56,508 nucleotides of DNA from an uncultured Bacilli bacterium (GTDB lineage: Bacteria > Bacillota_I > Bacilli_A > RF39 > UBA660), in NCBI GenBank assembly GCA_934130235.1, contig CAKOXU010000002.1, forward strand, positions 1-56,508, written 5' to 3'. The notes under the pieces were generated by a model, which did not search any database, was not told where the DNA came from, and saw only the letters and a list, made by a program, of their open reading frames with translations. Shown one piece after another: positions 1 through 53,206 of this stretch. Each line of letters begins with the position of its first letter. The first letter of the stretch is position 1. Made by a program: the position numbers and the translations under genes.

Positions 1-114
1 TCCTTATATAATTTATTCAATATTTGTATTGGCTTGTCAATTTTTCTTAAAATTTTCGTGTCCTAATTCTTGACATAAATCCAAAATAACTTGTTTTATT
101 ATAAGAAGAATTAT

Positions 115-1224
115 TTAGCTTGATAATTCTTTTATTGTACTAACATATTCCACTTTGGAATATTTATCGTAATAAGCTTTTGATGTTCTTAATATATGAA
201 TTGTATTTATTAAATAGAAAATTAATAGTGTTAAAGCTATTTCTACAAATATAAATATGCTTATATATGTATTTATATTAAAGTTTGGATATATTTTAAT
301 CATAAACATTACTATTAAATACACTACTCCAAAATAGTTTAAATAAGTAAGTACTGTTTTTATTATTAATCTAATAAAAGTATGATTAGGAAACCGTAAT
401 TTAATATTTAAGAATTTTCCTGCACATGTATATCCATTAAATATATATGGTATTAGTACAAAATATATTGTAGATGTTGATATTATTAATATACTACTAA
501 TTTTAGTTTTAATTATTATTTCTAATACTATTATTATACTTATATATATAAATGTATCTAAAGTATAAAGCGTTATTCTTCTTAAACCTGATACTTTTGT
601 ACCAGCTTTTATAGAATTCTTATCAATTGTATCTCTTGTAGGAAGTGCTTTTTTAAATATACCCATTATATAGAATCCTAGTATACCACCTGCTGTATTT
701 AATATTAAATCATCTATATCAAAGAGTCTATATGGTCTTGGATATATAAAATATAATCCTGTAAGCTGTGTTATTTCAAAGAACAAAGATAACAAAAAGG
801 TAAATATTATTGTATGTCTTAAATCACATTTATAATAATATCTTAAATACATACCAAAAGGTATTGTCATTAGTATATTAAAAAATACTACATACACACA
901 AGATTCAGTTAAAGCCCTCAAATAAGTTGATGGTGCTGATATATTAAACGATGTTTCTTTTATTATATCAGTTATAAAGCTAAATGGTATTAAATTCATT
1001 ATTGGGCCTGTCATATGTGATACTTCTTCTATATCTGGTAATGGAAGTATTACTAAAAAATATATTATTAATAAATAAAGTACAAATGAGTATACAATCA
1101 ATGTTCTTAATTTATTTACAGAACCATATCTATGATATTCAATTAATATAAATGGTATTGTTAAAAGAAAAGCAATTACTGGAAAGAATACTAATGCATT
1201 TTTTATTACTTCTATATAACTCAT
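115..1224 (-). CDS. VanZ-like membrane protein with C-terminal RDD-like multi-TM extension
   Basis: 369-aa ORF. The N-terminal ~190 aa has a VanZ-type TM layout (FDIDDLILNTAGGILGF). The C-terminal ~170 aa adds TM helices with R..LD, GK and YYDKYS..V features like RDD-family proteins. Its start shares one base with the stop of the upstream permease (TAATG at 1222-1226). Confidence 0.7.
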   Translation of the reverse strand: MSYIEVIKNALVFFPVIAFLLTIPFILIEYHRYGSVNKLRTLIVYSFVLYLLIIYFLVILPLPDIEEVSHMTGPIMNLIPFSFITDIIKETSFNISAPSTYLRALTESCVYVVFFNILMTIPFGMYLRYYYKCDLRHTIIFTFLLSLFFEITQLTGLYFIYPRPYRLFDIDDLILNTAGGILGFYIMGIFKKALPTRDTIDKNSIKAGTKVSGLRRITLYTLDTFIYISIIIVLEIIIKTKISSILIISTSTIYFVLIPYIFNGYTCAGKFLNIKLRFPNHTFIRLIIKTVLTYLNYFGVVYLIVMFMIKIYPNFNINTYISIFIFVEIALTLLIFYLINTIHILRTSKAYYDKYSKVEYVSTIKELSS

Positions 1225-3266
1225 TATCGTTCCTTTATAATTGCTTTACTACTTAAGTAAGTTAATATAAAATACCCACCATATATAAATATCAAGAACA
1301 ACATTGTTGTTAAAACTGACGAAAGTAATTTTTCTTTACCAAATGTTTCTAGAATAAGAATGCTGAATCTTATTCCAAATATTGAATGTATTATAGCAAG
1401 TATAAGTGGAAACATAAAGAATATACCTATTTGTCTAAAAAGTGCCTTATTTATTAATCTTTCATCTGCTCCTAATTTCCTTAACATATTATATCTTTCT
1501 TTATTATCTGTTGATTCAGATAATTGTTTTAAAGCAAGTATAGCTGCAGACGATATTAAAAATATTATTCCTAAATAAAGTCCTATAAATGTTACAATTA
1601 CACCTATTCCAACTGAAGCATTAATAACGTCTATTTTTGTATTTATAATTGTATAAGTATTGTTAGATGAATTTATTGTAGAAACAAGCTCTTCATCTAA
1701 TAATTTTTTCTCTTCTATTTTATTTGATTTATAATTAGCCACTAATATTTCTCTATATAAATCAGCTTCATTAACTACATTGTCCGGAACTATTACTATT
1801 CCTGAATTAGAGTAATTAGCTCCTATATCTATAAACCCTTCTTTACACTCATTATACTTAGGTTTTAATGTATAACCATTAATATTTAGTTTTGTTTTAG
1901 CTTTTAAACTTATATTTCTAATTTTTACAATTGTACCATAATCAGCTATTATCATGTATTCATTATTCTTCAAACTATATGTTTCTTTGTTATAATACTT
2001 AGCTAATTTATTGTAATCACTTATTTTTATATATGTTTCTTGTGCTTTTGTATTTAATCCATACACTTTTTCTATATATCTTGACTTTGATCCAAATGTA
2101 TCAGCCATTGTAAAATCTTCTCTTCTATAGGCATTAATTGAAACGCTATCTTTAAAATAATCATTTAAATCTATTCCAATATTTTTTAAAGATTTTTCAA
2201 TTGATATTTGTGAATCTATTGTCAATTCGTTATTACCGGTATCTTCATATGCTATATTCCTTGATTTCGAGAATTCTACATCTACAGGAGCTAATTTATT
2301 TATATTTGCAGTCATAGAATTTTTCATTGATAATGATGCAGATAAAACGCATATTGTTATGAATAACATTAAGCATATTACAGTCATAGATAATACTGTG
2401 GTACTAATTTTACTACTTAATTGTCTAAGAGTAAAACTATTTAATCCACGATAATATATTTTTTTTAATGACATAAATATTCTAAGTAAAAGCCCTGACA
2501 ATGAGAAGAATATTAAAAACGTCGATAGAGCTCCAAGAGCTATAGGGATAAGTATTTCTTGTGGAGTATTTAGTTTACTTATACCATCTGTAACTAAGTA
2601 ATATGCAACTGAAAGTAAAATGACAGATATTATAAATAATATAGTACAAACATAGGGATTTTTAAGCTTTATTTTTTCTTCTCTTTTGTTATAAGAAAGC
2701 AAACTTATAAGTTTTACTTTACTTATATTAACTGTATTAAATATCATCACAAGTAAATACATAATACTAAAATATATTAGTGTTTTAATACAAGCTGAAT
2801 TTGAAAAAACAAATTTAAATTTTGTCATGTCAGCATCAAACATATTAGCGACTATTATACTCATAAATTGTGATAAAAATACGCCCAAGCATAAACCCAC
2901 ACATAATGATATAAGACCTATAAATATTGTTTCTAAAAACAATATAAACGATATTTTTCTTTTACTCATTCCAAGTGTTAAATATATTCCAAATTCTTTA
3001 TTCCTTCTTTTAATTAAAAATCTTGAAGCATATATAATTAGACATCCTAATATAATTGATACAAAAACACTTACTCCGGATAATATATTTATCATAAGAC
3101 CTATTACTTCATGTGTAGAAGATGATACTTCTAACATAGCTGTTTGGCTGTCCATAGAGTTAAAAACATAAAATATAGATACACCTAATATAAGTGTAAA
3201 AAAATATATAGTATAATCTTTGATGCTTTTAGATATATTTTTTAATGATAACTTACAAAGCATCAT
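1224..3266 (-). CDS. BceB-type ABC transporter permease (FtsX-domain, 10 TM, large extracellular loop)
   Basis: 680-aa ORF with TM clusters at both ends and a ~200-aa hydrophilic domain between them. It overlaps the upstream ATPase gene by 14 nt, and an RR-HK pair lies upstream. Confidence 0.85.
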   Translation of the reverse strand: MMLCKLSLKNISKSIKDYTIYFFTLILGVSIFYVFNSMDSQTAMLEVSSSTHEVIGLMINILSGVSVFVSIILGCLIIYASRFLIKRRNKEFGIYLTLGMSKRKISFILFLETIFIGLISLCVGLCLGVFLSQFMSIIVANMFDADMTKFKFVFSNSACIKTLIYFSIMYLLVMIFNTVNISKVKLISLLSYNKREEKIKLKNPYVCTILFIISVILLSVAYYLVTDGISKLNTPQEILIPIALGALSTFLIFFSLSGLLLRIFMSLKKIYYRGLNSFTLRQLSSKISTTVLSMTVICLMLFITICVLSASLSMKNSMTANINKLAPVDVEFSKSRNIAYEDTGNNELTIDSQISIEKSLKNIGIDLNDYFKDSVSINAYRREDFTMADTFGSKSRYIEKVYGLNTKAQETYIKISDYNKLAKYYNKETYSLKNNEYMIIADYGTIVKIRNISLKAKTKLNINGYTLKPKYNECKEGFIDIGANYSNSGIVIVPDNVVNEADLYREILVANYKSNKIEEKKLLDEELVSTINSSNNTYTIINTKIDVINASVGIGVIVTFIGLYLGIIFLISSAAILALKQLSESTDNKERYNMLRKLGADERLINKALFRQIGIFFMFPLILAIIHSIFGIRFSILILETFGKEKLLSSVLTTMLFLIFIYGGYFILTYLSSKAIIKER

Positions 3267-4020
3267 TTAAATCACCACCAAGTAATGTTACTACATCTAT
3301 TATTTTATTAAAAAACTCTTTTCTTGTATCTTCTCCACGCATTATTTCACTAAAAATTTTGCCATCTTTAATAAAAATTACACGAGTTGAATAACTAGCT
3401 GTAAATGCATCATGTGTTACCATTAGTATTGTAGTTTTTAAATCATTATTTAAGTATTTAAATCTTTCTAGCAACATTTTAGCCGATTTAGAATCGAGTG
3501 CTCCAGTAGGTTCATCTGCAAGCACTATTTTTGGATTTGTTATTATAGCACGTGCACTTGCTACTCTTTGTTTTTGCCCTCCACTCATTTGATAAGGATA
3601 TTTATTTAAACAATCTGTTATATTTAATTTTTTAGCAACTTCTTTTACTCTACTTTCTATTTGCTTTACATTTATATTTTGTATGGATAATGCTAAAGCT
3701 ATATTTTCATATGCAGTTAATGTATCAAGTAAATTAAAATCTTGAAAAATAAATCCTAATTTTTCTCTTCTGAATTTATTTAAACTATTACCTTTTAGTT
3801 TAGTTATATCACATTCTTGTACATAAATGTGTCCAGATGTTACTTTATCAATTGTAGAAATACAGTTAAGAAGTGTTGTCTTACCACTTCCACTGGCTCC
3901 CATAATAGCGACAAATTCACCCTTTTCTACATCAAAAGAAATATTATTAATTGCTTTAGTTAAACTAGATCTATTACCATAATACTTTTCTATTTTATCT
4001 ATTTTTAAAATATTTTCCAT
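3253..4020 (-). CDS. BceA-type ABC transporter ATP-binding protein
   Basis: Walker A GASGSGKTT, signature MSGGQKQR, Walker B VLADEPTGALD. Shine-Dalgarno GGAAGGGAG lies upstream of the ATG. Confidence 0.9.
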   Translation of the reverse strand: MENILKIDKIEKYYGNRSSLTKAINNISFDVEKGEFVAIMGASGSGKTTLLNCISTIDKVTSGHIYVQECDITKLKGNSLNKFRREKLGFIFQDFNLLDTLTAYENIALALSIQNINVKQIESRVKEVAKKLNITDCLNKYPYQMSGGQKQRVASARAIITNPKIVLADEPTGALDSKSAKMLLERFKYLNNDLKTTILMVTHDAFTASYSTRVIFIKDGKIFSEIMRGEDTRKEFFNKIIDVVTLLGGDLNDAL

Positions 4021-4087
4021 AATATTCTCCCTTCCATGTATAATTCTATTATTTTTATAATTATTTGTCGCTCTTTTAATATAATTT

Positions 4088-4109
4088 AATATTACAATTA
4101 TGTAATATT
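4088..4109. promoter_or_regulatory. Perfect 9-bp inverted repeat AATATTACA-ATTA-TGTAATATT upstream of the ABC ATPase gene; candidate response-regulator operator and/or end of the HK transcript
   Basis: Read directly from the sequence. It lies 68-89 nt upstream of the ATPase start codon and overlaps the HK stop codon (4108-4110). Bce-type regulators are known to bind inverted repeats upstream of their transporter promoters. Confidence 0.35.
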
Positions 4110-5121
4110 AAAATTTATAATACTTATTGTTTCCAAATTTAATAATAACTGTAGTATATTTTCCTTCTTCTGATTCAATTTCAATAGTATGACCTAATTT
4201 TCTACACAGATTACTTGCTATATAAAGTCCAATACCTGTAGATTTAATTCTATTTCTACCATTAGTTCCTGTAAATGATTTTTTAAATACATTAGGAATA
4301 TCTCTTTTCGGTATACCTATACCATTATCAGTAATACATAGACTAATTTCATCCAAGGATGTAGTTGCACTTATTTTAATATAAGAATTTTTTATATTCT
4401 TTTTATATTTAATACTATTGTTAATTATTTGATTTAATATAAATTCTAACCATTTATAATCAGTATAAACGCTCAAATTGTTTAAATTTACTTCTAAATT
4501 TATCTTATTTTCTAATAAATCATCTTTATTTTTTAAAGCAATGCTAGATATTACTTTATCAAGTTTTACTTCTTTAAATACAAAATCATTTTCTGTATAA
4601 TTACTTCTTACATAATATAATATTTGATCTATATAATTATCAAGTCTCCTAATTTGTTCAGCAAATGATAAATCTAATTTATTTTTATTATTATGACACA
4701 TCAGTATTAAACTAGAAATTGGTATTTTAACCTCATGTATCCACATTTCTATATACTCTTTGAAATCTTCTATACTCTTCTCATAATCATTTACGTTTTC
4801 TATCATAGATTTATTTATATCATATAACAATTGATGCATAATTTGACCTTCATAAAATGATGGAGTCTTTATTGTCTCAATAACTAAATATTTTTTATCT
4901 AGATTTTCGGTATTCATAACAATTTCTTTATAAAAATTATTCTTCCTAACATAGTCATATATTAATATTATAAAAGTGCACAAAAGTATAATAATACTAA
5001 TAATCAATATTACAAGTGGTGGAGTTTTAAACGCCTTTAGCAATAAAGCAACTACAATATTTGTAACAAATAAAATAATAATTACAAATAATTTATCTAA
5101 AATATATCTATTTAGTTTCAT
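4108..5121 (-). CDS. Intramembrane-sensing histidine kinase (BceS-like)
   Basis: 337 aa. Two N-terminal TM helices with almost no extracellular loop. H-box HEVKIPISSL, G1 DNGIGIP, G2 GIGLYI. Overlaps the RR gene by 4 nt. Confidence 0.85.
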   Translation of the reverse strand: MKLNRYILDKLFVIIILFVTNIVVALLLKAFKTPPLVILIISIIILLCTFIILIYDYVRKNNFYKEIVMNTENLDKKYLVIETIKTPSFYEGQIMHQLLYDINKSMIENVNDYEKSIEDFKEYIEMWIHEVKIPISSLILMCHNNKNKLDLSFAEQIRRLDNYIDQILYYVRSNYTENDFVFKEVKLDKVISSIALKNKDDLLENKINLEVNLNNLSVYTDYKWLEFILNQIINNSIKYKKNIKNSYIKISATTSLDEISLCITDNGIGIPKRDIPNVFKKSFTGTNGRNRIKSTGIGLYIASNLCRKLGHTIEIESEEGKYTTVIIKFGNNKYYKF

Positions 5122-5780
5122 TTTAATATATACCCTTGATTCTTTCTTGTTTCTATAATATCACCATATCCAAAACTCGACAATTTTCTTCTTAATCTAC
5201 TAATATTTACTGTAAGTGCATTATCGTTTATATACTCTTCATTATCCCACAGTATAGTCATAAGTTCATCACGTGTAACTATTCTATCTTTATTATTTAA
5301 AAGATATGAAAAAATTATCATTTCATTTTTCGTAAGATCAATAACTATATCATCTTTTTTTAATATTGACTTTGATAAATATATAGTTAAATCTAAATAA
5401 TTGATTGTATCACAAGTTTGCTCTAATCTTTTAAATATATTTTGTATTCTCAAAAGAAGTATTGTTGGATTATATGGTTTTGTTATATAATCGTCCGCAC
5501 CATATGACATTGATAAAACTTCATCTATTTCACTCGATTTACTTGTAAGCATTATAACTGGCACATTAGATTCTTTTCTTATATTTTTAAGTAAACTCTC
5601 ACCATTTATATTAGGTATATTAATATCCATAAGTATTAAATCCGCACCGCTTTTTGATATTTCGGTCATAGAATTATCAAAATCAGTTAAAACAAGTACT
5701 TCATATCCATCATGGACTAATATCTCCTTTAATTCGTTTACTATTGTTTTTTCATCTTCTACAATTAATATTTTTTTCAT
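5118..5780 (-). CDS. OmpR-family response regulator (BceR-like)
   Basis: 220 aa. Receiver domain (ILIVEDE, LILMDINIP) plus a C-terminal winged-helix Trans_reg_C-like region. Confidence 0.9.
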   Translation of the reverse strand: MKKILIVEDEKTIVNELKEILVHDGYEVLVLTDFDNSMTEISKSGADLILMDINIPNINGESLLKNIRKESNVPVIMLTSKSSEIDEVLSMSYGADDYITKPYNPTILLLRIQNIFKRLEQTCDTINYLDLTIYLSKSILKKDDIVIDLTKNEMIIFSYLLNNKDRIVTRDELMTILWDNEEYINDNALTVNISRLRRKLSSFGYGDIIETRKNQGYILK

Positions 5781-5812
5781 AATACACCTCCACTTTATTG
5801 TATCACATTTAT

Positions 5813-5841
5813 TAAAAGCAGGAGAATACTATTCTTCTGCT
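5813..5841 (-). terminator. Rho-independent terminator after the ABC exporter permease
   Basis: 11-bp stem AGCAGGAGAAT/ATTCTTCTGCT (one G-T pair), 3-nt loop, flanked by A/T runs. Starts right after the stop at 5844-5846. Confidence 0.6.
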
Positions 5842-5843
5842 TT

Positions 5844-7445
5844 TTAAACGTTTATATTTTTATAATCTTTTATACCTTTTTGCATTAAAATATAATATAA
5901 AACTAATGAAATAATAGTAATGATTATTAAATGAATAGTTATAAGTATATGAATATCAACAGTGTCATAAAAATGAGTCAATCCAAAAATACTAATTAGA
6001 AACACTCCTAATCCAACAAATACTGATATAGTAGAACTCATACTTTGCTTTACAATTTCTGTATCATTAGTAGCATTCATCTTTGGATATTTCAAATTAA
6101 CTAATAAACCTAATACCGCGCTAAAAAAGATTGTTATTACTCCTATAAGTAGTATTACTACTACATAGAATATGCTAGGCTTAAAAACTATAAAATATAT
6201 TAATTCTCCTATTAATATAAAAGGCAATTCTATAACAAATGGGTAAATTACTTTTGAGTTTAATATATCCTTATACTCTATAGGTAAACTTTTTGTAATA
6301 TTCATAGTTCTTCCTTCTAGTGATATGGACGATGATGTAATAGATGTCATTGAAGTCGAGAAAAATATTAACCCATAATATAAAAGTTGAATAGGTGCGC
6401 TATTATTTAATCCATATCCTGAAAGCAAATTTTCAAATACTCCTCTACCCTTTATGCATAATAATAAAGATACAATAAGACTTAAAAAAAGTCCAAAAGA
6501 TGTATTTAATATATATACAGGTGAAGATATATATCTTTTCAACTCTTTTATAATTAAAGACTTAATTGGTTTATTTGATTTAAAAGAAGTTCTTTTTATT
6601 TTTTTATTCTTTACTATATTTCCTTTAGAGTCAGAAATAATCTTAAAATAATATTTAGATCCTATAAATATAAACAGTAAAAGCGGTAAAACATTTATAA
6701 GTACTAATTTAATCAATACAACTAAATCAAATTTATTAATTAAACTAATATAAGCACCTATAGGATAATATATTTTTATTAATACATCATTTATATCTGT
6801 AGCTTTTAAAACTATATTATCTATAAATGAATCTAACTTACTACTTATAAAAAATATAAGTAATAATACTACAATAGAAAGTATAGTTTGTACTATTTTT
6901 TTATAGCTAGCTTTACTTGAAAGCGTTTTAACTATATATCCTAAAAAACTAGATATAACAGTTGGTATTATTGGTATCAAGAATGTCATCAATAGTGAAA
7001 TAAAGTAAAAATCTATTGATGGTTTTTCATAATAAATATAAGCTACAAAAGCAGGTAATAAGAACATCAAATTATATATATACTCAAATAATAACAATTT
7101 AAATATTCTAATAAATAAAATATTTGATTTTTTTATAGGTAAAGAGAACAATAAATCATTATCACGTGCTTCAAATAATATTCCTTGAGATTTATATATT
7201 CCTTGTATAAATGTGAATATACTAACGATTGCTATAAACATAGAAAGTACTACATAGGTTAATTTAAACGTATATAATTTTTCACTTATCATAAATGCAT
7301 ATGAGCCTATTGATATACATACCAATAAAAATAATAATATAGGAAATAGTATTTTTTTATATTTACTAGAATTATTTTTAACTGTATATGCAAACATATT
7401 CATATCTTGACTAAGTACAGCTTTAAATAGTGAGAACGTTTTCAT
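5844..7445 (-). CDS. Multi-TM putative ABC exporter permease
   Basis: 533-aa highly hydrophobic ORF with about 12 predicted TM segments. Its start overlaps the stop of the upstream ATPase gene by 1 nt. Confidence 0.6.
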   Translation of the reverse strand: MKTFSLFKAVLSQDMNMFAYTVKNNSSKYKKILFPILLFLLVCISIGSYAFMISEKLYTFKLTYVVLSMFIAIVSIFTFIQGIYKSQGILFEARDNDLLFSLPIKKSNILFIRIFKLLLFEYIYNLMFLLPAFVAYIYYEKPSIDFYFISLLMTFLIPIIPTVISSFLGYIVKTLSSKASYKKIVQTILSIVVLLLIFFISSKLDSFIDNIVLKATDINDVLIKIYYPIGAYISLINKFDLVVLIKLVLINVLPLLLFIFIGSKYYFKIISDSKGNIVKNKKIKRTSFKSNKPIKSLIIKELKRYISSPVYILNTSFGLFLSLIVSLLLCIKGRGVFENLLSGYGLNNSAPIQLLYYGLIFFSTSMTSITSSSISLEGRTMNITKSLPIEYKDILNSKVIYPFVIELPFILIGELIYFIVFKPSIFYVVVILLIGVITIFFSAVLGLLVNLKYPKMNATNDTEIVKQSMSSTISVFVGLGVFLISIFGLTHFYDTVDIHILITIHLIIITIISLVLYYILMQKGIKDYKNINV

Positions 7446-8158
7446 TATTTGTTTTCCTCTAATTCAAGAAATACTTGTTCTAATGATTCATCGCCTTTTA
7501 CATCATTCATTGTACCAATACTTATTAATTTACCCTGTTTTATAATAGCTACTCTATTACATAATTTTTCAGCCACATCTAATATATGTGTGGAAAAGAA
7601 TATTGTCTTTCCTTGTTTTGTCATCTCATGCATTAACTCTTTCATATCATATATAGCTTTTGGATCTAATCCTACAAATGGTTCATCCATTATAAGTACT
7701 TTAGGATCGTGGGAAAGCGCCGCTATTAAAGCAGTCTTTTGCTTCATACCATGAGAAAAGCTAGAAATATCATCGCTTAATTTATTTTCCATATTAAACA
7801 TCTTTGAATATTTTAATATATTTTCTTTTCTAACGGATTCAGATATATTATACATATCACATACAAAATTTATAAAATCTATAGCCTTCATATTTTCATA
7901 CAAATCAGGATTATCTGGTACATATGCCATATCCATTTTACATAAGACAGGATCATTTTTTATAGAATTACCATTTATTAAAATATCCCCTTGTTCAAAA
8001 TCTAATATTCCTACTATAGATTTAATCATAGTAGTTTTTCCTGCACCATTATGTCCAATGAATGCAAATATTTCACCATCATTTACATTAAAGCTAATAT
8101 TATCAATAGCTCGCTTATCTTTATTATAAGACTTCACAACGTTTTTAATTTCTATCAT
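7445..8158 (-). CDS. ABC transporter ATP-binding protein (ABC-2 type)
   Basis: Walker A GHNGAGKTT, signature-like FSHGMKQK, Walker B LIMDEPFVGLD. Confidence 0.9.
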   Translation of the reverse strand: MIEIKNVVKSYNKDKRAIDNISFNVNDGEIFAFIGHNGAGKTTMIKSIVGILDFEQGDILINGNSIKNDPVLCKMDMAYVPDNPDLYENMKAIDFINFVCDMYNISESVRKENILKYSKMFNMENKLSDDISSFSHGMKQKTALIAALSHDPKVLIMDEPFVGLDPKAIYDMKELMHEMTKQGKTIFFSTHILDVAEKLCNRVAIIKQGKLISIGTMNDVKGDESLEQVFLELEENK

Positions 8159-8950
8159 TTATTCACTCCTAAAATTTATTTCTATTTTTCCTACTCCACC
8201 ATCTATATTTATAAGATTTCTTCCACTTCCATAAATAGCATCACTGCTAACTTTTTCATTATCTATTACATTTTTACCTACACAGCCATCTAATTTTATT
8301 TTATAATCATTTTTATTTCCAAATAGATTTAATTCTAATGATCCTACATTAGCATCTATTTCGTTTCTACCAGTAAGAGTAGTATTTATAATAGCTTTTC
8401 CTACACCCATATCAAAATCTAAATTTGATATATCTGATGAAGCTATTTCTAATTTTCCTACACCAGTTTCTATAGATGTATTATTTGATTTTAAGTACTT
8501 TATAAAAGTCGATCCTTTGCCTAAATCTAAATCTAATTCATTAGAAATGATACTATCTATCTCCAATTTCCCTACATTAGTATTTATTGATACTTCATCA
8601 AATTCATAATCCTTAGGGATATAAATAGTTAAATCACTTGATCTAAGATTAAGTAATTTATTTTTTTCCTTAATAACTAACTCTGATCCATTATTTTTAC
8701 AAATTGTGTTTTCAGAAGTCGAATCTATTGAAAAAGTTTCACCGTCTTTTATAGTAATATTAGTATTAACAACATCAATATCCAAACTATTTACATTATT
8801 GTAGTTACATTTATTACTACCACTATTATGTATTCCAAATATACTACCTAAAGATGATATGCCTAATATTACTATACTTAGTATAGTAATAATTAAAAAT
8901 ATTGCAAGACATACAGCCAAATACTTAATTAATTTTTGAGTTGAAGTCAT
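8159..8950 (-). CDS. Membrane-anchored beta-repeat protein, DUF4097-like (putative adhesin-type beta-helix)
   Basis: 263 aa. N-terminal TM anchor followed by repeated GVGK/VGKLE(I) beta-strand units (VGKLEIDS, GVGKLEIAS, GVGKAII, VGSLELN, GVGKIEIN). Directly abuts the ATPase gene. Confidence 0.55.
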   Translation of the reverse strand: MTSTQKLIKYLAVCLAIFLIITILSIVILGISSLGSIFGIHNSGSNKCNYNNVNSLDIDVVNTNITIKDGETFSIDSTSENTICKNNGSELVIKEKNKLLNLRSSDLTIYIPKDYEFDEVSINTNVGKLEIDSIISNELDLDLGKGSTFIKYLKSNNTSIETGVGKLEIASSDISNLDFDMGVGKAIINTTLTGRNEIDANVGSLELNLFGNKNDYKIKLDGCVGKNVIDNEKVSSDAIYGSGRNLINIDGGVGKIEINFRSE

Positions 8951-9597
8951 TTAATATTCACACCTCCAAATAAACATGTACAATTTATATAAATTGTATA
9001 CTTACCATTTCCTTTATACTTGTTATTTACGCCACCAAATATCGGAGTAGACTTTACTTTAACATTTACTCCTTCTTTTAATGTTATGTCTATTCCACCA
9101 AATATACTACTCGCATTAATTATTATATCCTTTTTTATATCTGAATCGCTTAGGTCATACTTAACTGATCCAAATACAGCTGTTAAATCAGCTCCTTCAA
9201 ATAAATCTTTTACTTTAATTATTTCTTCACCAAAAGTTGCACATATTTCTTTATTGTTTTTATCACTTATATTTATCTTTTCAACTTTATTATCTTTAAA
9301 TATAAATGATAATCCAATTACAACTAAAATTACTGGCAACATTAGTTTCCAAATTATACTGAAACTTAATATATTTTGACAGCTTAGAAGTAATAAAATT
9401 CCTATTGTAAGCCCTATTATACTTCCTGTTTTTGAAGTACTATTAAAAAGCCCTACAAACGACGGTATAATTATAAACAAAGTCCACCATCCATTAAAAA
9501 ACAAATTAATATTAACTATGTCAAATGAATTTAATCCTATAATAACTCCTATAAATATAATTATTAATCCTAATATATAATTTTTCATATCAATCAC
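8947..9597 (-). CDS. LiaF-like cell-envelope stress protein (4 TM plus DUF2154-like C-terminal domain)
   Basis: 216 aa. The N-terminal ~100 aa is hydrophobic. The C-terminal region has repeated FGG/FGS motifs (AVFGSVKYDL, SIFGGIDITL, PIFGGVNNK, CLFGGVNIK) typical of LiaF/YvqF C-termini. Confidence 0.6.
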   Translation of the reverse strand: MIDMKNYILGLIIIFIGVIIGLNSFDIVNINLFFNGWWTLFIIIPSFVGLFNSTSKTGSIIGLTIGILLLLSCQNILSFSIIWKLMLPVILVVIGLSFIFKDNKVEKINISDKNNKEICATFGEEIIKVKDLFEGADLTAVFGSVKYDLSDSDIKKDIIINASSIFGGIDITLKEGVNVKVKSTPIFGGVNNKYKGNGKYTIYINCTCLFGGVNIK

Positions 9598-10186
9598 CCT
9601 TTCTTATTATCCATGGATTATTTGGATTTTGTTCAAGCAGCATGAGTGCTTGAAACTCTTGAGATAGTAATTGTTTTATCTCATCATCAGTAAATTTTAT
9701 AGTTTTGGTAGCTACAAGTGTAGCTATTCCATGAGTAAATAACCACATCTTTACATGAAAATCTTCTATTTTATTGTCTGATAATCTTGTACTATTTTTA
9801 GCAAATTTCATAACACGATTAAAATCATTCTCTTCTTTTGATATAAATTTTTTTGGAGCATAATCAAATTCACTCATAAATAGTACTTTAAATAAATTTT
9901 TCTCATCACGAGCAAACTTAATATAATTTATACCTATTTGTTTATACTTAGGCACATCGTCTATTATGTTTTCTATTATATAATCATAAAAATATTTTTC
10001 CATCTTAGAATAAAGCTCCGCCTTAAGCTCATCAACATTTTTAAACTGATAGTATATTGGTCTAATAGAAGAATTTAATTTTTTAGCTATTTCTCTATTA
10101 CTTACACTCTCAATACCAGATTCACGCACGATATTAAAAGCAGCATCCAATATATTATTCTTGGTTATTTTAAGTGTTGTTGGCAT
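9590..10186 (-). CDS. TetR/AcrR-family transcriptional regulator
   Basis: 198 aa. N-terminal HTH (SNREIAKKLNSSIRPIYYQFKNVDEL). First gene of a tightly packed five-gene operon. Confidence 0.85.
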   Translation of the reverse strand: MPTTLKITKNNILDAAFNIVRESGIESVSNREIAKKLNSSIRPIYYQFKNVDELKAELYSKMEKYFYDYIIENIIDDVPKYKQIGINYIKFARDEKNLFKVLFMSEFDYAPKKFISKEENDFNRVMKFAKNSTRLSDNKIEDFHVKMWLFTHGIATLVATKTIKFTDDEIKQLLSQEFQALMLLEQNPNNPWIIRKGD

Positions 10187-10212
10187 ATATATCTCCTTTC
10201 TATATTAGTTAT

Positions 10213-17040: not shown

Positions 17041-17068
17041 AAAAATAAAAACCTTTGAAAACAAAGGT
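17041..17068 (-). terminator. Intrinsic terminator after tRNA-Ser
   Basis: Stem ACCTTTG/CAAAGGT with a 4-nt loop, followed on the minus strand by TTTTATTTTT. Confidence 0.65.
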
Positions 17069-17080
17069 CAAAATTCAAAA

Positions 17081-17171
17081 TGGCGGAGTAGGAGAGATTT
17101 GAACTCTCGCGCCAGTTGCCCGACCTACACCCTTAGCAGGGGCGCCTCTTCAGCCTCTTGAGTACTACTCC
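17081..17171 (-). tRNA. tRNA-Ser (anticodon GCU), CCA encoded
   Basis: The reverse complement GGAGTAGTACTCAAGAGGCTGAAGAGGCGCCCCTGCTAAGGGTGTAGGTCGGGCAACTGGCGCGAGAGTTCAAATCTCTCCTACTCCGCCA folds as a cloverleaf. It has a 7-bp acceptor stem, anticodon loop CTGCTAA, a long variable arm and T-loop GTTCAAATC. It is a clear GC-rich island in AT-rich surroundings. Confidence 0.9.
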
Positions 17172-17363: not shown

Positions 17364-18008
17364 CTAAACCTTTAATTTTTCTTTAATCTTTTTTTCTCTT
17401 CTAGAAACTTGTACTTGAGTTATTCCTAATAAAGAAGAGGTTTCACTTTGTGTATAATCATTCATATATCTATTTATAACTATTTGTCTGTCAATATCAT
17501 TTAATTTACTCATTTTTTCCTTTAAAATCAACAAATCATCAATATTATTTGATTCACCTATTACATCCAATAATGTATATGAGTTATCATTTGAAAAAGA
17601 TGAATCTAAACTTTTAATTTGATATGAGCTTGATACAGCTTCATCTACAAGCATAGGATCTATATTTAAATATAAAGCAATTTCATAATTAGTAGGTTCT
17701 TTCATCATCTTTTGACTTAATAAAATACGAACCTTCTCTATTTTTGATTTTAATCTTGTTATATCCCTACTTACCTTCATAGCTCTATCTTCGTTTACTA
17801 ATCTATACATTTCGCCATATATAGAAGTATATGCATAAGTAGTAAACTTACAATTAGAATCATTCTTATAATTCTTATAAGCTTTTATAAAACCTATACA
17901 TCCAGCTTGATATAAATCTTCTTTATATATATAATCTTTAAAATATTTAGTAATAATAGAATAGATTAAACCAGAATTTTCTGTAATTATTTTTTCTAAA
18001 TTATCCAT
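17364..18008 (-). CDS. Group-3 sigma factor of the SigF/SigG/SigB type
   Basis: 214 aa. Similar along its length to B. subtilis SigF as I recall it (LYQAGCIGFIKAYKNY; KFTTYAYTSIYGEMYR; MKVSRDITRL; YTQSETSSLLGITQVQVSRREKKIKEKLK). Confidence 0.85.
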   Translation of the reverse strand: MDNLEKIITENSGLIYSIITKYFKDYIYKEDLYQAGCIGFIKAYKNYKNDSNCKFTTYAYTSIYGEMYRLVNEDRAMKVSRDITRLKSKIEKVRILLSQKMMKEPTNYEIALYLNIDPMLVDEAVSSSYQIKSLDSSFSNDNSYTLLDVIGESNNIDDLLILKEKMSKLNDIDRQIVINRYMNDYTQSETSSLLGITQVQVSRREKKIKEKLKV

Positions 18009-18009
18009 A

Positions 18010-18357
18010 TTAATTCAAATTAAGTAGCTTAATAGCACTTAATTCATCCTCTATTTCATATACATAATTAATTAATCTACTCTTTTTTAAATAATTACTT
18101 ATATTCTCATTATTACCACATAAATAATTTCTACCATTATTTATTTTGCACAATTCATAATTATATAAAATAGCATTTATTCCCTTAAAATCAATTGATT
18201 TTAGGTATTTAAGATTATATACAATATTTATTATCCCTGTTTTCTTTATAACATCCGTTACTTTTTTGTTAAAAACATCAACACTATCTTTGTTAAGTTC
18301 GCCTTTTAATCTTACAAATAATATTCCCTTTCTAAACTCAGTATTAACTTTAAGCAT
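18010..18357 (-). CDS. STAS-domain anti-sigma-factor-antagonist-like protein (SpoIIAA/RsbV-like) lacking the phosphorylatable serine
   Basis: 115 aa. The block IINIVYNLKYLKSIDFKGINAILYNY aligns without gaps to SpoIIAA [26 protein letters not shown]. Phe57 (codon 18187-18189) occupies the Ser58 position. The stop is 1 nt from the sigma start. Confidence 0.8.
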   Translation of the reverse strand: MLKVNTEFRKGILFVRLKGELNKDSVDVFNKKVTDVIKKTGIINIVYNLKYLKSIDFKGINAILYNYELCKINNGRNYLCGNNENISNYLKKSRLINYVYEIEDELSAIKLLNLN

Positions 18358-18431
18358 ATGTTCACCTTCCTATATAATTTACCACAGGTTTAGATAAACT
18401 TATACAATATCGACAAAAGTAGAATTATTTT

Positions 18432-18668
18432 TTATTTATCATTTATTAAAAACAGATATTCTTCTATTTGATTTTTATTATTTTTTTTAAAATTAGATAT
18501 AAATTTTCTTCTTACTTGTTTCATTTCATTTTCTAGTTTTTCAATACTATCTTTGTTGTTCTCTTTTTTATATTTTTCTAATTTACTTTTTAATGATGAA
18601 TAATACACGAGTTCTTTATACATTTCGTCAGTCATATTAAATTTTAAAAAATTTAAATCTTTACTCAT
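18432..18668 (-). CDS. Hypothetical small helical, lysine-rich protein (78 aa)
   Basis: ORF with Shine-Dalgarno AAAGGAG and an upstream TTGACT-17-TAAAAT promoter-like sequence. I recognise no motif. It is the first gene of the orf78-STAS-sigma array. Confidence 0.5.
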   Translation of the reverse strand: MSKDLNFLKFNMTDEMYKELVYYSSLKSKLEKYKKENNKDSIEKLENEMKQVRRKFISNFKKNNKNQIEEYLFLINDK

Positions 18669-18794
18669 AGTACTCCTTTCATTTTTATGTCTCCCTTTTA
18701 CAAATTAATTTTATTATATATAATCTTCTAAGTCAATCTACTTCATCAACTTTTCATAATATTAGATTTCATTGTAATACTTTATTTACACCAA

Positions 18795-18820
18795 ATTAAA
18801 AAACTGCACATTATGCAGTC
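18795..18820 (-). terminator. Intrinsic terminator after orf117
   Basis: Stem ACTGCA/TGCAGT with a 5-nt loop, followed on the minus strand by TTTTTTAATTT. The stop codon (18811-18813) lies in the loop. Confidence 0.6.
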
Positions 18821-19164
18821 TTTCTCAATTTACTATGTATATCAGTGTTAACACGTGAAATGAGTGCAACATCAATACTTTCCTTAGCTCTATTGGCTGC
18901 TAAAGGCAAATTTTTATGTGGACTATCAAAATAATTATTACAATTACTAGTAGTAAATTGTGAATAATAGTCATTGTAAAATGCTTCAGCCTCTTCTTCT
19001 TTTACTTTTCCTTTTGCTACTAACTTAGAATACAATTCCGAAATATCAGTAATAATATTAGAAAACTCATCTGATACCCAAGCAGAAGTTCCTTTAGTAA
19101 CATTTAATCTATTAGTTCTATTTAGAATTGAATCAGTTTTTGTACTTGTTAATTCTCTAGACAT
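18811..19164 (-). CDS. Hypothetical protein (117 aa)
   Basis: The ORF start shares one base with the stop of orf179 (TAATG), implying translational coupling. No recognisable motif. Confidence 0.5.
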   Translation of the reverse strand: MSRELTSTKTDSILNRTNRLNVTKGTSAWVSDEFSNIITDISELYSKLVAKGKVKEEEAEAFYNDYYSQFTTSNCNNYFDSPHKNLPLAANRAKESIDVALISRVNTDIHSKLRKTA

Positions 19165-19703
19165 TATAATCCTACCTCCACATCTAGCATAGCCTTAATA
19201 ATACTTCTTCCATCATTCGTAAAATATGAATTAAACATAGTATCTTTACCAACTATATGACTTAAAAGATTAGCTATAAAAACCTCTTCCTCTAAATCAG
19301 ATGTCCCTTCATTTCCAATAACATAATTAGCTAAAATCTCAGTATAAGCTAAATTAAGCGCTCTTAATCTTTCATCTGAATTAAAACCTGTATATGTATT
19401 AGTACTAGTAGCCATTTCTAATAATACTTTCATAAAAATATGGTCCGGATCATAATTACCTTCTAATTTATTCGCATCTATATAGGCAATATTTCTATAA
19501 ACATCATAGTAGTATATACCTTTTCTTTCGAATTTACTTAGTTTCCCTAATTTTAATGTTTTAAGTGATTTAGTTAGCTTGTTAATGTCAACTTCTTTTA
19601 TTTTAGATTGAAGTTTCAATACCAAACTATATAGTCTTTCTTTTATCTCTGTTGAAAGATAAGGATTACTTTGTAAAGCCTGTTTTATCTCTAAATCGCT
19701 CAT
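19164..19703 (-). CDS. Hypothetical protein (179 aa)
   Basis: The ORF starts 53 nt downstream of clpC with no intervening terminator. No recognisable catalytic motif. Confidence 0.5.
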   Translation of the reverse strand: MSDLEIKQALQSNPYLSTEIKERLYSLVLKLQSKIKEVDINKLTKSLKTLKLGKLSKFERKGIYYYDVYRNIAYIDANKLEGNYDPDHIFMKVLLEMATSTNTYTGFNSDERLRALNLAYTEILANYVIGNEGTSDLEEEVFIANLLSHIVGKDTMFNSYFTNDGRSIIKAMLDVEVGL

Positions 19704-19756: not shown

Positions 19757-22042
19757 TTAACTAAAACATTTATTATTTATATTTTTAATATATACACTAT
19801 ATTCATTATTTAATAATTTATCTATAACTATATTTTCAATATTATTTTTTATTATCTTATCTATTTTTCTGGCTCCATATTCGTTATAGTTAGATAAATT
19901 TAATATATCTTTTTTTGTTTCATTAGAAATTCTTATATTTACACTTTTATACTTTTCTTTTAACTGTTTTAGCTTATTATTAATTATATTAAGCATATCT
20001 TTTTCTGTTAATGTTTTAAATTCTAATATAGAATCTATTCTATTTACAAACGGTATTGAGAAGAACTCTTTTAATTCTGTTTTTGTATTTGTACTATTGA
20101 ATCCTATACTCTTAGTTAAATATCCTATATTGGATGTCATAATTATTATACAATTATTAAAGTATATATCTTCTCCTTTAGCATCTTTTACTTTTCCATC
20201 TTCTAATATTTGATATAATAAATCAATAACGGTACTATTAGCTTTTTCTATCTCATCTAATATTATTACAGAAAAAGGATTGTCTTTTACGCATTCAAAT
20301 ACATTTTTTGAATCATTATAACCTACATATCCGGCTGGTGATCCTATTAGTTTACTAATAGAATGAGCCTCTGTATACTCACTCATATCTAGTTTTATTA
20401 TATTATTAAAAATACTTTTACCAAATTGCTGCGCTAAAAATGTTTTCCCGACTCCACTAGGTCCTTGAAAAAGTATACAATAACATCCATTATTATCAGT
20501 AAAACCTAATTTAATTCTTTTTATTACATTCATTAATTTATCTATATTTTTATCATGACCAATAACTGTTTTTTTTAAGTTTTTTTCTATTTTTAGTATT
20601 TCATTACTATTATAATCTTCTAGCTGAAATATAGGTACATTACATTTTCTGCTAACTATCTCAATTATATCATCTTTTTTTACCTCGTTTTTTATATTAT
20701 TTTTATTTAATTCTATTTTATTTAACTTATCTGTAAGTATATTTTCTTCTCTTTTATATTCAGTTGCCTGATCATATAAAGAATTCATTATACAATCTTT
20801 TTTTAATTTTTTTAATTCATTTATCTTATTTAATATATTATAGTATTTTTTTTCTATTTTAGATTGTTTCAATGATACGTGAGCACATACTTCATCTAAT
20901 ATATCTATACTTTTATCAGGCTGATATCTATTATGAATATATTTATTTGAAAGTTCTATTATATAATCTAGCATTTCATTTGAAATAGATATTTTGTGAT
21001 ATGCTGAATAGGTAGAAACTAATTTATATAATATTTCTTTTAATACAGCATTATTAGGTTCTTGTATCTCTACCTTTTGAAATCTTCTATCAAGCGCTTT
21101 ATCTTCTTCTATACTTTTTTTATATTCTAAAGTAGTAGTAGCTCCAATACATCTTAACTTGTTACGTGCTAAAGCAGGTTTAAATATATTTGATGCATCA
21201 ATAGCACCCTCTGCTCCTCCGGCACCTACTAATGTATGAATTTCATCTATAAACAATATAATATCGTCATTTTCTTCACACTCTTTAAGTAATTTATTTA
21301 CTCTTTCTTCAAATTCGCCTCTATATTTAGTTCCTGATACTAATTGTGAAACATCTAAACTAATTATTTTTTTACCTCTTAATTTATATGGAACTTTACC
21401 AATAGATATTAGCTTACTTAAATTTTCTACAATAGCTGTTTTTCCTACACCCGCTTCTCCTATAAGTATTGGATTATTTTTCTTTCTTCTACATAATATT
21501 TCAATTATTTGTTTAACTTCTTCATCTCTACCTATTACTGGATCCATATCTGAACATTTTTTAATAAGATTATCACCTATTTCTTCAACTAATAGTTTCT
21601 TATTTTTACTCTTTTTTATATTAGGTATTTTTACAAAAGCGTGATACAGGTCTTCTAAATCTATATCCATACCTAAAAGAAGTCTGATTGCTACTCCTTC
21701 TCCTTCTTCAAGTAAACTAATTATTACATGATTAAGAGTTATTAAACCATTATTGTTTTCTTTGCTGTCTAAATAAGCGTTTTCTATTACTCTTTTTAAT
21801 AAAGGCGTATATAAAAAGCAAGAGCTTTCTATCTTACCAATTCCTATTACACGAATTATTTCTTCTTTAAAATTTTTATATGTAATATCATATTTATTTA
21901 AGGTATCACTAACAGTGTTTTTAAATTTTAAGAGCGCTAAAAGAAGGTGCTCACTTCCTACATATGGATGATTTAAAGCTTTCATCTCCTCTTTTGCTCT
22001 TATTAATACTTTTTTTACATCTTCAGTAAAATTATTATACAT
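19757..22042 (-). CDS. clpC: ATP-dependent Clp protease ATP-binding subunit ClpC
   Basis: Clp_N repeats. D1 Walker A GEAGVGKTA and ILFIDEIHTLVGAGGAEGAIDASNIFKP. Coiled M-domain. D2 GPSGVGKTF and VIILDEIEKA. ClpP-docking IGF loop (KSIGFNS). Start placed at the ATG preceded by GAGGAGGAG (M13 of the track ORF). Confidence 0.9.
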   Translation of the reverse strand: MYNNFTEDVKKVLIRAKEEMKALNHPYVGSEHLLLALLKFKNTVSDTLNKYDITYKNFKEEIIRVIGIGKIESSCFLYTPLLKRVIENAYLDSKENNNGLITLNHVIISLLEEGEGVAIRLLLGMDIDLEDLYHAFVKIPNIKKSKNKKLLVEEIGDNLIKKCSDMDPVIGRDEEVKQIIEILCRRKKNNPILIGEAGVGKTAIVENLSKLISIGKVPYKLRGKKIISLDVSQLVSGTKYRGEFEERVNKLLKECEENDDIILFIDEIHTLVGAGGAEGAIDASNIFKPALARNKLRCIGATTTLEYKKSIEEDKALDRRFQKVEIQEPNNAVLKEILYKLVSTYSAYHKISISNEMLDYIIELSNKYIHNRYQPDKSIDILDEVCAHVSLKQSKIEKKYYNILNKINELKKLKKDCIMNSLYDQATEYKREENILTDKLNKIELNKNNIKNEVKKDDIIEIVSRKCNVPIFQLEDYNSNEILKIEKNLKKTVIGHDKNIDKLMNVIKRIKLGFTDNNGCYCILFQGPSGVGKTFLAQQFGKSIFNNIIKLDMSEYTEAHSISKLIGSPAGYVGYNDSKNVFECVKDNPFSVIILDEIEKANSTVIDLLYQILEDGKVKDAKGEDIYFNNCIIIMTSNIGYLTKSIGFNSTNTKTELKEFFSIPFVNRIDSILEFKTLTEKDMLNIINNKLKQLKEKYKSVNIRISNETKKDILNLSNYNEYGARKIDKIIKNNIENIVIDKLLNNEYSVYIKNINNKCFS

Positions 22043-22092
22043 ATTCTCCTCCTCTATTATTCTATGAATATAATGCATTAAATAATTTATAT

Positions 22093-22263
22093 TTATTCAT
22101 CATATATTATCATTGCACTAAAACAGTATAGTTGTTCATCTCCCATTACTGATATAGCTACTTGGTATTTAATATCTATAATTTCAATATCATCATTTAA
22201 AAAATTATTAATACTTTTTTCTAAGTCAAGTTCATGAGATTCATCAAATACTTTTACACGCAT
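22093..22263 (-). CDS. Small Cse60-like sporulation protein (56 aa, below the ORF-track cutoff)
   Basis: My own translation: MRVKVFDESHELDLEKSINNFLNDDIEIIDIKYQVAISVMGDEQLYCFSAMIIYDE. Shine-Dalgarno GTGGTGA upstream. The pattern VKVFDE.HE.DLE..IN.FL...IDIKYQVA...EQ.YCFSA.I.Y matches my recollection of the Cse60/YteV family. Confidence 0.55.
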   Translation of the reverse strand: MRVKVFDESHELDLEKSINNFLNDDIEIIDIKYQVAISVMGDEQLYCFSAMIIYDE

Positions 22264-52285: not shown

Positions 52286-53206
52286 TTAAGCTAAAATAGG
52301 GATTTCTATATACACAGTTGTTCCTTTGCCTAAAGACGATACATAATTAATCTTTCCATTATGAGCCCATATTATCTCATAACTTAAACTAACTCCAAGA
52401 CCCGTACCTCTACTCTTTGTAGTAAAAAATGGTTCCTTTATTTTTTTCAATGTTTTTTCATCCATACCTTGTCCATTGTCTTCTACAATTATGTTAAACT
52501 TATTATTATTTATTCTAGTTTTAACATTAATAATTCCTTTTTCATCTATTGCTTCTATACTATTTTTAATTACATTTATAATTACTTGACTAAGTCTATT
52601 ATAATCACCCTTTATATATACTTCATCATCTAATATATCTGTATTAAGTCTTATTTGCTTTTCTTCTATTAAATTAGATAATTTTTTTATTTGCTCCTCA
52701 ACTAGCATATTAATATCCATTATATCCGCATTTATATTTATTTTGTTTATAAGCAAAAAATCCTGAAGTAATATTAAAAGTCGTTCTATTTCAGACCTTA
52801 TTATAGGAATATACTTTTGAACCTGTTTAGAATCATCCATATTAAGCATATCTAAGTATCCCTTTATAACCGCAATTGGATTTTTAATTTCATGAGTTAT
52901 TTTAAATAGGGATAATTGTATTTGATTATTATTAATAAGTTCATTATAAGTTAATTTATCTTTTAGTATTTTTGTTCCAAGAAAATACATAATATATATA
53001 AATATACATAAGAATAATACACTTATTATATTCATACTATCTATAGAACCTAGTCTATATACTAAAAGAAAAGAACCTAATACAGATACAAAAAAACATA
53101 ATTTTTGGTATCTAATATTTTTATTAGTATACAAGAATATTAAATATATAGATATAGGGAATAAAACCAATATAGAGTTTAATAATAATATTTCAAAATC
53201 ATTCAT
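52286..53206 (-). CDS. Orphan membrane histidine kinase (no adjacent response regulator)
   Basis: Three N-terminal TM helices. H-box THEIKNPIAVIKGY, N-box NVIKNSIEA, G1 DNGQGMD, G2 GTGLGVSL. Start taken as the ATG after GGTGAT (the track uses the TTG one codon upstream). Confidence 0.85.
   Translation of the reverse strand: MNDFEILLLNSILVLFPISIYLIFLYTNKNIRYQKLCFFVSVLGSFLLVYRLGSIDSMNIISVLFLCIFIYIMYFLGTKILKDKLTYNELINNNQIQLSLFKITHEIKNPIAVIKGYLDMLNMDDSKQVQKYIPIIRSEIERLLILLQDFLLINKININADIMDINMLVEEQIKKLSNLIEEKQIRLNTDILDDEVYIKGDYNRLSQVIINVIKNSIEAIDEKGIINVKTRINNNKFNIIVEDNGQGMDEKTLKKIKEPFFTTKSRGTGLGVSLSYEIIWAHNGKINYVSSLGKGTTVYIEIPILA

Follow-up and report, generated by a model that had tools for sequence, protein, structure and literature searches.

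How can a forespore sigma factor be kept under control when the kinase that should restrain it is missing from its operon and the antagonist that should release it carries no phosphorylatable residue? This question is raised by a short gene array in a 56,508-nucleotide (nt) stretch of DNA from an uncultured Bacilli bacterium of the order RF39 (contig CAKOXU010000002.1 of assembly GCA_934130235.1), the whole of which we call the window. On the minus strand, the array consists of orf78 (18432-18668; 78 amino acids, aa), a gene for a 115-aa SpoIIAA-type STAS protein (18010-18357) and a gene for a 214-aa group-3 sigma factor, a probable ortholog of sigma-F (17364-18008). In the textbook scheme, sigF and sigB are controlled by partner switching, with the gene order antagonist, kinase/anti-sigma, sigma, and the antagonist is switched by serine phosphorylation. 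The SpoIIAA/SpoIIAB/SpoIIE version of this switch is the textbook route by which endospore-formers activate their first forespore-specific sigma factor.

An earlier note, drawn from the letters of this DNA alone, had described the array as a SigF/SigB-type module in which both halves of the phospho-switch are missing, and had proposed that the sigma factor is controlled by some other mechanism. Our analysis extends this proposal from one locus to a family, and suggests that the array contains an orthologous spoIIA sporulation operon without spoIIAB, whose sigma factor is probably controlled independently of phosphorylation.

Absence of the kinase from the operon

The coordinates of the open reading frames (ORFs) confirmed the array, including the gap of a single base (18009) between the stop codon of the STAS gene and the ATG of the sigma gene. 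This gap leaves no room for a gene between the two, and the spacing would permit coupled translation.

We examined 37 operons: 31 loci that a scan for STAS motifs recovered from a collection with one genome for each GTDB species, five sampled cluster representatives and the window itself. Contigs carrying related loci (labelled L0xx) were read to a distance of at most 10 kb from the match in each direction. The 31 loci come from metagenome-assembled genomes (MAGs) named uncultured Bacilli, Tenericutes, Mollicutes or Firmicutes, except for two labelled Muribaculaceae. They have G+C contents of 23-29%, and their isolate names refer to human, mouse, rabbit, sheep, goat and roe deer guts as well as other sources. 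Together they represent a group of fast-evolving uncultured orders, namely RF39, RFN20 and ML615J-28. In each of the 31 GTDB-species loci and in all five cluster representatives, the STAS gene either borders directly on the sigma gene or overlaps it, and no kinase gene was found within any of the 37 operons. Because the same features recur in every related operon examined, the kinase-less layout is not a chance peculiarity of the window.

Searches beyond the operon were likewise negative. With Bacillus subtilis SpoIIAB and RsbW as queries, phmmer (--max) against window ORFs of at least 60 aa gave a best E value of 0.027, and tblastn against the six frames of the window gave a best E value of 0.052, each inside a histidine-kinase gene. 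No SpoIIAB/RsbW-like ORF was detected by phmmer across 581 kb of DNA from the lineage, and no PP2C/SpoIIE domain is annotated among the genes of the window. SpoIIAB, RsbW, SpoIIAA and SigF of B. subtilis served as queries or references; the SpoIIAA and SigF sequences align as expected with the Geobacillus sequences in the PDB. The window does encode two GHKL proteins (4108-5121 and 52286-53209, both on the minus strand), which are ordinary histidine kinases of HisKA+HATPase_c architecture. With that addition, the claim that it holds no GHKL ORF of the SpoIIAB/RsbW type stands.

Gene-content data point in the same direction. A 2024 report in Microb Genom (PMC10868615) describes spoIIAB and spoIIE as less often present or entirely missing in the order RF39. 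It presents a presence/absence table of KEGG orthologues in which, of three uncultured orders, RF39 alone is listed without spoIIAB, and the parts consulted contain no account of a STAS-sigF operon layout, phosphosite decay, a conserved Spo0A box or a mechanism. A phrase search of the literature on operons without spoIIAB returned no paper. The missing genes are already tabulated; of the operon anatomy, the phosphosite decay and the Spo0A control, we found no prior description.

The phospho-acceptor position of the STAS protein

The STAS protein matched the Pfam STAS family (E = 2.3e-11) and barely passed the NCBIfam anti-sigma antagonist model TIGR00377 (55.4 bits against a cut-off of 53.45). 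phmmer aligned it without gaps to the SpoIIAA chains 1th8_B, 1tid_B and 1auz_A, laying Asp56-Phe57-Lys58-Gly59 over Asp57-Ser58-Ser59-Gly60 of SpoIIAA; PDB entry 1tid carries the S58A variant at the position aligned with Phe57. MAFFT also placed Phe57 in the column of Ser58. In an AlphaFold model built with 51 homologs (predicted local distance difference test score, pLDDT, 93.6), helix alpha-2 begins at Phe57. The best Foldseek matches of this model were SpoIIAA chains in complexes with SpoIIAB (1thn_B, 1tid_B and 1th8_B), with a template modeling (TM) score of 0.91 and root-mean-square deviations (rmsd) of 1.4-2.0 Å, the value for 1thn_B being 1.4 Å; RsbV gave a poorer match than SpoIIAA (TM 0.79). 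Since the phmmer alignment, the predicted helix start and the superposition agree, Phe57 can be assigned to the position of the phosphorylated Ser58, as had been proposed from a gapless comparison, and no method placed a Ser or Thr of this protein at the site.

The residue at this position varies widely among relatives. Across 120 close homologs it is Ile in 74, Met in 24, Val in 12, Phe in 7, Thr in 2 and Leu in 1, with Asp56 invariant and Lys58 and Gly59 nearly so. A profile search over 1.84 billion cluster representatives recovered 214 clusters at E <=1e-10 and 750 at E <=1e-3. Among the best 150 representatives (clustered at 50% identity), the site holds Leu in 22, Ile in 21, Ser in 15, Glu in 15, Asn in 14, Lys in 10, Met in 9, Tyr in 8, Gln in 6, Val in 5, Asp in 5, Phe in 4, Thr in 4, Arg in 4, Ala in 3 and Gly in 2. 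Ser and Thr together amount to 13%, which in our judgement is about what a neutral surface position would be expected to show. Column entropy, computed from 131 near-full-length representatives, reaches 3.64 bits at the phosphosite, among the highest values in the protein, as against 0.29 for Asp56 and 0.19 for Gly59. Nearly all full-length members of the best 150 share an N-terminal ML.I..EFRKGILFVRL motif and the ID-x-x-G loop. The phospho-acceptor column itself is evolutionarily unconstrained across the STAS family.

All five inspected cluster representatives are kinase-less, including three that carry Ser or charged residues at the site. Ser or Thr is retained in the STAS genes of L035 (1999-2349, IDSVG), L036 (1455-1805, IDSEG), L037 (1389-1730, IDTYG) and L041 (7845-8174, IDSSG), in each case within a kinase-less operon.

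The remainder of the protein is strongly conserved. In the close clade, comprising the window and L007-L028, mean pairwise identity is 0.81 for the STAS protein and 0.72 for the sigma factor; between B. subtilis and Geobacillus the order is the opposite, with 73% for SpoIIAA and 86% for SigF. No natural STAS-sigma fusion occurs among the homologs recovered. No frameshift interrupts the STAS gene at any locus; together with the high identity, this shows that the STAS protein is functional and under strong purifying selection. Its greater constraint relative to the sigma factor speaks for an important interaction and makes a relic less likely.

Identity of the operon

The sigma factor contains Sigma70 regions 2, 3 and 4 (Pfam). 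Its NCBIfam ranking is headed by SigF (162.6 bits), followed by SigB/F/G, SigG and SigB (96.9 bits), all below the equivalog cut-offs (321 for SigF). The best PDB sequence match is the sigma-F chain 1l0o_C (E = 1.1e-33). In this clade, the sigma factors are without about 30 N-terminal residues that are found in B. subtilis SigF.

Gene order in relatives supports a sporulation identity. In B. subtilis, spoVA lies directly downstream of spoIIA. The genes that come after the sigma gene in L029 encode SpoVAC, SpoVAD and SpoVAE, each of which passes one or more NCBIfam cut-offs, and L030, L034 and L037 have the same spoVAC-AD-AE three-gene layout as judged by ORF size and sequence. According to Pfam annotation, spoVA genes also lie directly 3' of the sigma gene in L041/L042; in L045/L046 they lie 3' of it with two genes intervening. 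Other sporulation genes accompany the operon elsewhere: the close relative L016 carries sigE adjoining a membrane ORF that by eye resembles spoIIGA, and the L030 contig carries sigK.

Upstream of the STAS gene, the sequence TGTCGAA, the core of the 0A box recognized by Spo0A, is perfect in 33 of 35 operons (34 related ones and the window). It lies 55-63 nt 5' of the STAS ATG in 32 operons; in L040, whose annotated start seems misplaced, it lies at -79. Its background frequency is 0.08 per kb. The window and L020 carry TGTCGAT, with one mismatch to the 0A box. In the window, this core belongs to a putative Spo0A-box-like element, TTTGTCGAT (18409-18417, minus strand), and starts 58 nt 5' of the STAS ATG. 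A second 0A box, 26 nt further upstream, is present in about half of the more distant operons. Between the box and the gene, we recognized a putative extended -10-like element, TGGTAAATT (18376-18384, minus strand), which reads TGCTAAATT in most relatives and keeps the same distance (-27) in most close ones. A ribosome-binding site, GGAAGGTGA (18362-18370, minus strand), was read from the sequence and is kept in relatives. The block common to every operon can be written ATTCTAGTTTTGTCGAA..TGTATAA-N13-15-GTGCTAAATTAAATAGGAAGGTGA-ATG.

The spoVA synteny and the conserved Spo0A box identify the operon as a true spoIIA operon. Together with sigE and sigK in relatives, they indicate a module that is sporulation-specific and, on motif evidence, controlled by Spo0A, rather than a sigma-B stress module. 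The earlier label "SigF/SigB-type" can be narrowed to this extent: the sigma factor matches SigF best, and the locus as a whole reads as an orthologous spoIIA sporulation operon from which spoIIAB has been deleted.

A further promoter-like motif is present in L007-L028. About 85-110 nt 5' of the STAS ATG, some 50 nt upstream of the Spo0A box and after the hairpin with a T-run that follows orf78, these loci carry AAAGGAAAT-N11-GTAGAAT, which by our own reading presumably fits the sigma-H promoter consensus. The window has neither this motif nor the hairpin because orf78 ends 74 nt before the STAS gene.

In distant kinase-less operons, a 386-544-aa ORF lies just upstream of the Spo0A-box promoter, in the position of dacF in B. 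subtilis. It was located at L029 8291-9925, L030 8436-9926, L031 466-1962, L032 2452-3798, L033 256-1575, L035 596-1930, L036 29-1387, L037 168-1328, L041 6424-7833, L043 344-1657 and L045 4748-5974. An N-terminal hydrophobic segment in L029-L033 and L035-L037 suggests secretion. No Pfam or NCBIfam match was found for the members scanned or provided with precomputed annotation.

Two other features of the window bear on sporulation. Perfect tandem Spo0A boxes (TTTGTCGAA, one base, TTTGTCGAA) at 53237-53255 on the plus strand lie 28-46 nt 5' of the gene for one of the two histidine kinases (307 aa; 52286-53209, minus strand). This protein has HisKA and HATPase_c domains, without a recognized sensor domain or an adjacent response regulator, and is a candidate for an orphan kinase of sporulation subject to feedback by Spo0A. 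Between an M23 peptidase gene and clpC (19757-22078, minus strand), a 56-aa ORF at about 22093-22263 (minus strand) has a Pfam Spore_Cse60 match in the precomputed annotation of identical contigs, and may thus represent a further sporulation-associated gene near the STAS-sigma pair.

Probable control of sigma-F without a phospho-switch

We consider it probable that the locus is a spoIIA operon without spoIIAB, in which the SpoIIAA fold is kept, the phosphosite is free to vary and sigma-F is controlled independently of phosphorylation. Under this reading, Spo0A would still control the production of sigma-F as sporulation begins, and sigma-F activity would not be gated by the SpoIIAA/SpoIIAB/SpoIIE phosphorylation partner switch. 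More tentatively, the STAS protein, probably produced in step with sigma-F, might act directly on it without phosphorylation and keep it inactive up to the point at which the forespore loses the STAS protein by removal or titration. Proteolysis of an unstable inhibitor could bring this removal about, echoing the behavior of SpoIIAB in B. subtilis, which is itself unstable and subject to proteolysis. Apart from the downstream spoVA genes and the unannotated upstream ORF of distant operons, only the STAS gene recurs beside sigma-F. The more specific proposal of a direct action on sigma-F, with a shift of role from antagonist to inhibitor relieved by degradation or dilution, is put forward tentatively and may well prove wrong.

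Several points weigh against these readings. About 13% of family clusters retain Ser or Thr at the phosphosite; this minority may reflect either neutral retention or a hint of a kinase encoded elsewhere in some sub-lineages. A relocated or very divergent kinase/anti-sigma elsewhere in the genome is possible, the searches having covered the 56.5-kb window and 581 kb of lineage DNA. The related loci were picked through STAS motifs and are not a random sample of genomes, so that the kinase-less statements describe this STAS subfamily. Adjacency of the STAS and sigma genes is the default outcome of deleting the middle gene, and is not in itself evidence of a new pairing. We found no precedent for a STAS protein that binds a sigma factor directly: a review of single-domain STAS proteins (PMC8256260) covers serine-phosphorylation-based systems only. 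Finally, sporulation has never been observed in these uncultured organisms, and a machine-learning predictor, SpoMAG, gave RF39 MAGs a 0% probability of sporulation (PMC12536801). The same study found spoIIAB in all 63 MAGs that were predicted to be spore-formers. Sporulation predictors based on spoIIAB would assign these abundant gut lineages to the wrong class.

Among the alternatives, replacement of SpoIIAB by a non-homologous anti-sigma-F factor survives best, and we still regard it as unlikely. The STAS protein would remain the antagonist of this factor, encoded nearby (for example by orf78) or elsewhere, and would be switched by ligand, redox state, proteolysis or titration. Retention of the SpoIIAA fold seen in the SpoIIAB complex (TM 0.91) and the strong conservation of the protein would fit retained partner binding, and Mycobacterium tuberculosis RsfA, an antagonist controlled by redox state and not by phosphorylation, would offer a parallel. 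The most obvious local candidate was orf78, which the earlier note had suggested as an anti-sigma factor; its product is helical-looking by sequence and encoded first in the array. It lies directly upstream of the STAS gene in the close clade, and no terminator separates the two in the window. However, this suggestion was weakened by the survey of relatives. The STAS-sigma part of the orf78-STAS-sigma synteny holds in all 31 loci, whereas orf78 homologs occur only in the close-clade loci L007-L028, where they are 30-45% identical, and are absent from the distant kinase-less operons L029-L037 and L040-L046; orf78 is hence not a general replacement for SpoIIAB. It has no Pfam or NCBIfam match and its own promoter-like site (18708-18736, minus strand). 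At least four relatives have a hairpin with a T-run 3' of orf78, several have a dedicated Spo0A-box promoter between orf78 and the STAS gene, and L008, L009 and L019 have 1.5-2.9 kb of unrelated genes inserted there. With its restriction to the close clade, its separate transcription signals and these insertions, orf78 is a poor candidate for the anti-sigma factor and is probably a neighbor, not part of the core module.

Other neighbors fare no better as non-homologous anti-sigma factors. Apart from spoVA, the only other recurring one is the upstream ORF of distant operons, which with its hydrophobic N-terminus is an unlikely anti-sigma factor. The product of orf179 (19164-19703, minus strand), a gene downstream of clpC that forms a conserved pair with orf117 (18811-19164, minus strand), resembles neither an anti-sigma factor nor a GHKL protein. 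Neither gene has a family match, and in L024 (8612-9472) the two are fused into one 286-aa ORF. All 339 matches of the orf179 family are hypothetical proteins of "Bacilli bacterium" MAGs from the same lineage, again with no Pfam match, and a profile search against PDB sequences found nothing. Its AlphaFold model (pLDDT 68.9) is helical with a three-stranded sheet. The best Foldseek matches are small zinc-protease folds (selecase, IrrE) at a non-significant E of 0.2 or worse; no GHKL fold appeared among the matches, and the sequence shows no evident HExxH motif. We accordingly rejected orf179 as a cryptic SpoIIAB or kinase, its model not being a GHKL fold.

A relocated, divergent kinase of the SpoIIAB/RsbW type appears improbable. 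In that case, the STAS protein would be a non-phosphorylatable antagonist comparable to the S58A variant of B. subtilis, and sigma-F activity would be set by protein amounts, not by a phosphatase. The idea draws on the extent of genome visible here (56.5 kb) and on the speed at which this lineage evolves: with SigF and SpoIIAA far below the NCBIfam equivalog cut-offs, a divergent kinase could escape gene-content surveys. Set against this, the position within the operon is empty in all 37 cases, and it is in the operon that the kinase of spore-formers lies. No SpoIIAB/RsbW-like ORF turned up across the 581 kb of lineage DNA, and selection on a protein as a kinase is not expected to persist once its substrate residue has been lost. 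The site, moreover, accepts Glu, Lys, Asp and Arg as readily as hydrophobic residues, which argues against a conserved docking surface. The wording of PMC10868615, in the passages at hand, is on the side of a relocated kinase, as "reduced presence or complete absence" does not amount to uniform absence.

Even less credible is a relic, in which sporulation has been lost and the STAS-sigma pair is decaying, or has been co-opted for a role outside the forespore that needs no anti-sigma control. The organisms are uncultured and have small AT-rich genomes, spoVA no longer lies 3' of the sigma gene in the window, SpoMAG assigns RF39 a value of 0% (PMC12536801), and related orders have lost sporulation repeatedly according to PMC10868615. 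Decay of the sigma gene in relatives, a possibility that the earlier note had raised, was not observed: both genes are intact in 37 of 37 operons, with close-clade identities of 81% for the STAS protein and 72% for the sigma factor. At the Spo0A box, the -10-like element and the ribosome-binding site, conservation extends to the single base. Relatives retain sigE, sigK, spoVAC, spoVAD, spoVAE and a spoIIGA-like ORF, and the window has the Spore_Cse60 ORF nearby and two perfect 0A boxes before the orphan histidine kinase. A general stress module of the RsbV/sigma-B type can be dismissed as most improbable: the sigma factor does fall within the SigB/SigF/SigG subfamily, but it scores 162.6 bits with SigF versus 96.9 with SigB and has sigma-F as its best PDB match, the STAS structure is closest to SpoIIAA and not RsbV, and the spoVA synteny and Spo0A boxes indicate sporulation.

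Genes surrounding the operon

The window has a G+C content of about 25% and carries nearly all of its genes on the minus strand. In that direction, the order is clpC, orf179, orf117, an intrinsic terminator (18798-18824, identified by a terminator scan), orf78, the STAS gene, the sigma gene, tRNA-Ser(GCU) (17081-17171, ARAGORN), a second, terminator-like hairpin from the same scan (17050-17069), and acyltransferase and acyl-CoA-ligase genes. The sigma gene is followed in the window by tRNA-Ser and these lipid-metabolism genes, not by spoVA, and tRNA-Ser with its hairpin appears to mark the downstream end of the STAS-sigma transcription unit. An Rfam scan of the window at gathering thresholds gave no matches. 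Identical STAS proteins are present on human gut metagenome contigs, including Hadza samples.

At the low-coordinate end (1-10200, minus strand) lies a gene cluster of the envelope-stress or antimicrobial-peptide-sensing type. It includes two sets of ABC-transporter genes, of which one has an FtsX-type permease; a response regulator and histidine kinase (4108-5780), a LiaF-like protein and a DUF4097 protein; and a TetR-type regulator and two VanZ-like proteins. Transposase genes (rve, HTH_Tnp_1) occur just past this end of the window on a near-identical contig.

Significance and comparison with known systems

The family comprises at least 214 protein clusters at 50% identity (E <=1e-10) and spans 31 GTDB species from the guts of humans, mice, rabbits and ruminants. 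Its members keep sigF, a strongly conserved SpoIIAA, Spo0A control as judged from motifs, and later sporulation genes; no kinase was found, and the phosphosite is unconstrained. This variant spoIIA system is widespread in abundant, uncultured gut bacteria. If these bacteria sporulate, forespore identity would be set by a different and possibly simpler mechanism, which bears on the evolution of the switch and on the capabilities of the STAS fold.

A close precedent in the literature is the RF39 gene-content report (PMC10868615), which concerns the same kind of organism and the same missing genes in the form of a gene table. Relative to the spoIIA operon of B. subtilis and Geobacillus, the first and last genes appear orthologous, a Spo0A box lies upstream and, in relatives, spoVA lies downstream. 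The differences are that the window operon is without spoIIAB, that Ser58 is replaced by Phe at a site unconstrained throughout the family, and that SpoIIE is described as reduced or absent in RF39 (PMC10868615). The sigma factor of the clade is about 30 N-terminal residues shorter than that of B. subtilis, and conservation is higher in the STAS protein than in its sigma partner, the reverse of the canonical pattern. The RsbV-RsbW-sigma-B system likewise places a STAS antagonist beside a group-3 sigma factor of the SigB/F/G subfamily. In the window operon, by contrast, there is neither RsbW nor a phosphorylatable serine, SigB and RsbV are the poorer matches, and the context is that of sporulation.

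Two further systems illustrate how control without a phospho-switch might work. M. tuberculosis RsfA, a redox-controlled antagonist of the anti-sigma-F factor UsfX, is a STAS antagonist in a SigF-type system without serine-phosphorylation switching, and the UsfX-RsfB complex (8ih8) was among the Foldseek matches of our STAS model. RsfA differs in acting on a GHKL-type protein, UsfX, and no such partner is visible in the window. The FlgM-sigma-28 pair is comparable in working principle only, the STAS protein showing no homology to FlgM: if the STAS protein binds sigma-F, the two would likewise form a co-expressed inhibitor-sigma pair that is relieved by removal of the inhibitor. To our knowledge, no known anti-sigma factor has the STAS fold. 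Should direct inhibition prove true, this protein would be the first of that kind, and with sigma-F it would make up a minimal two-protein switch of cell fate.

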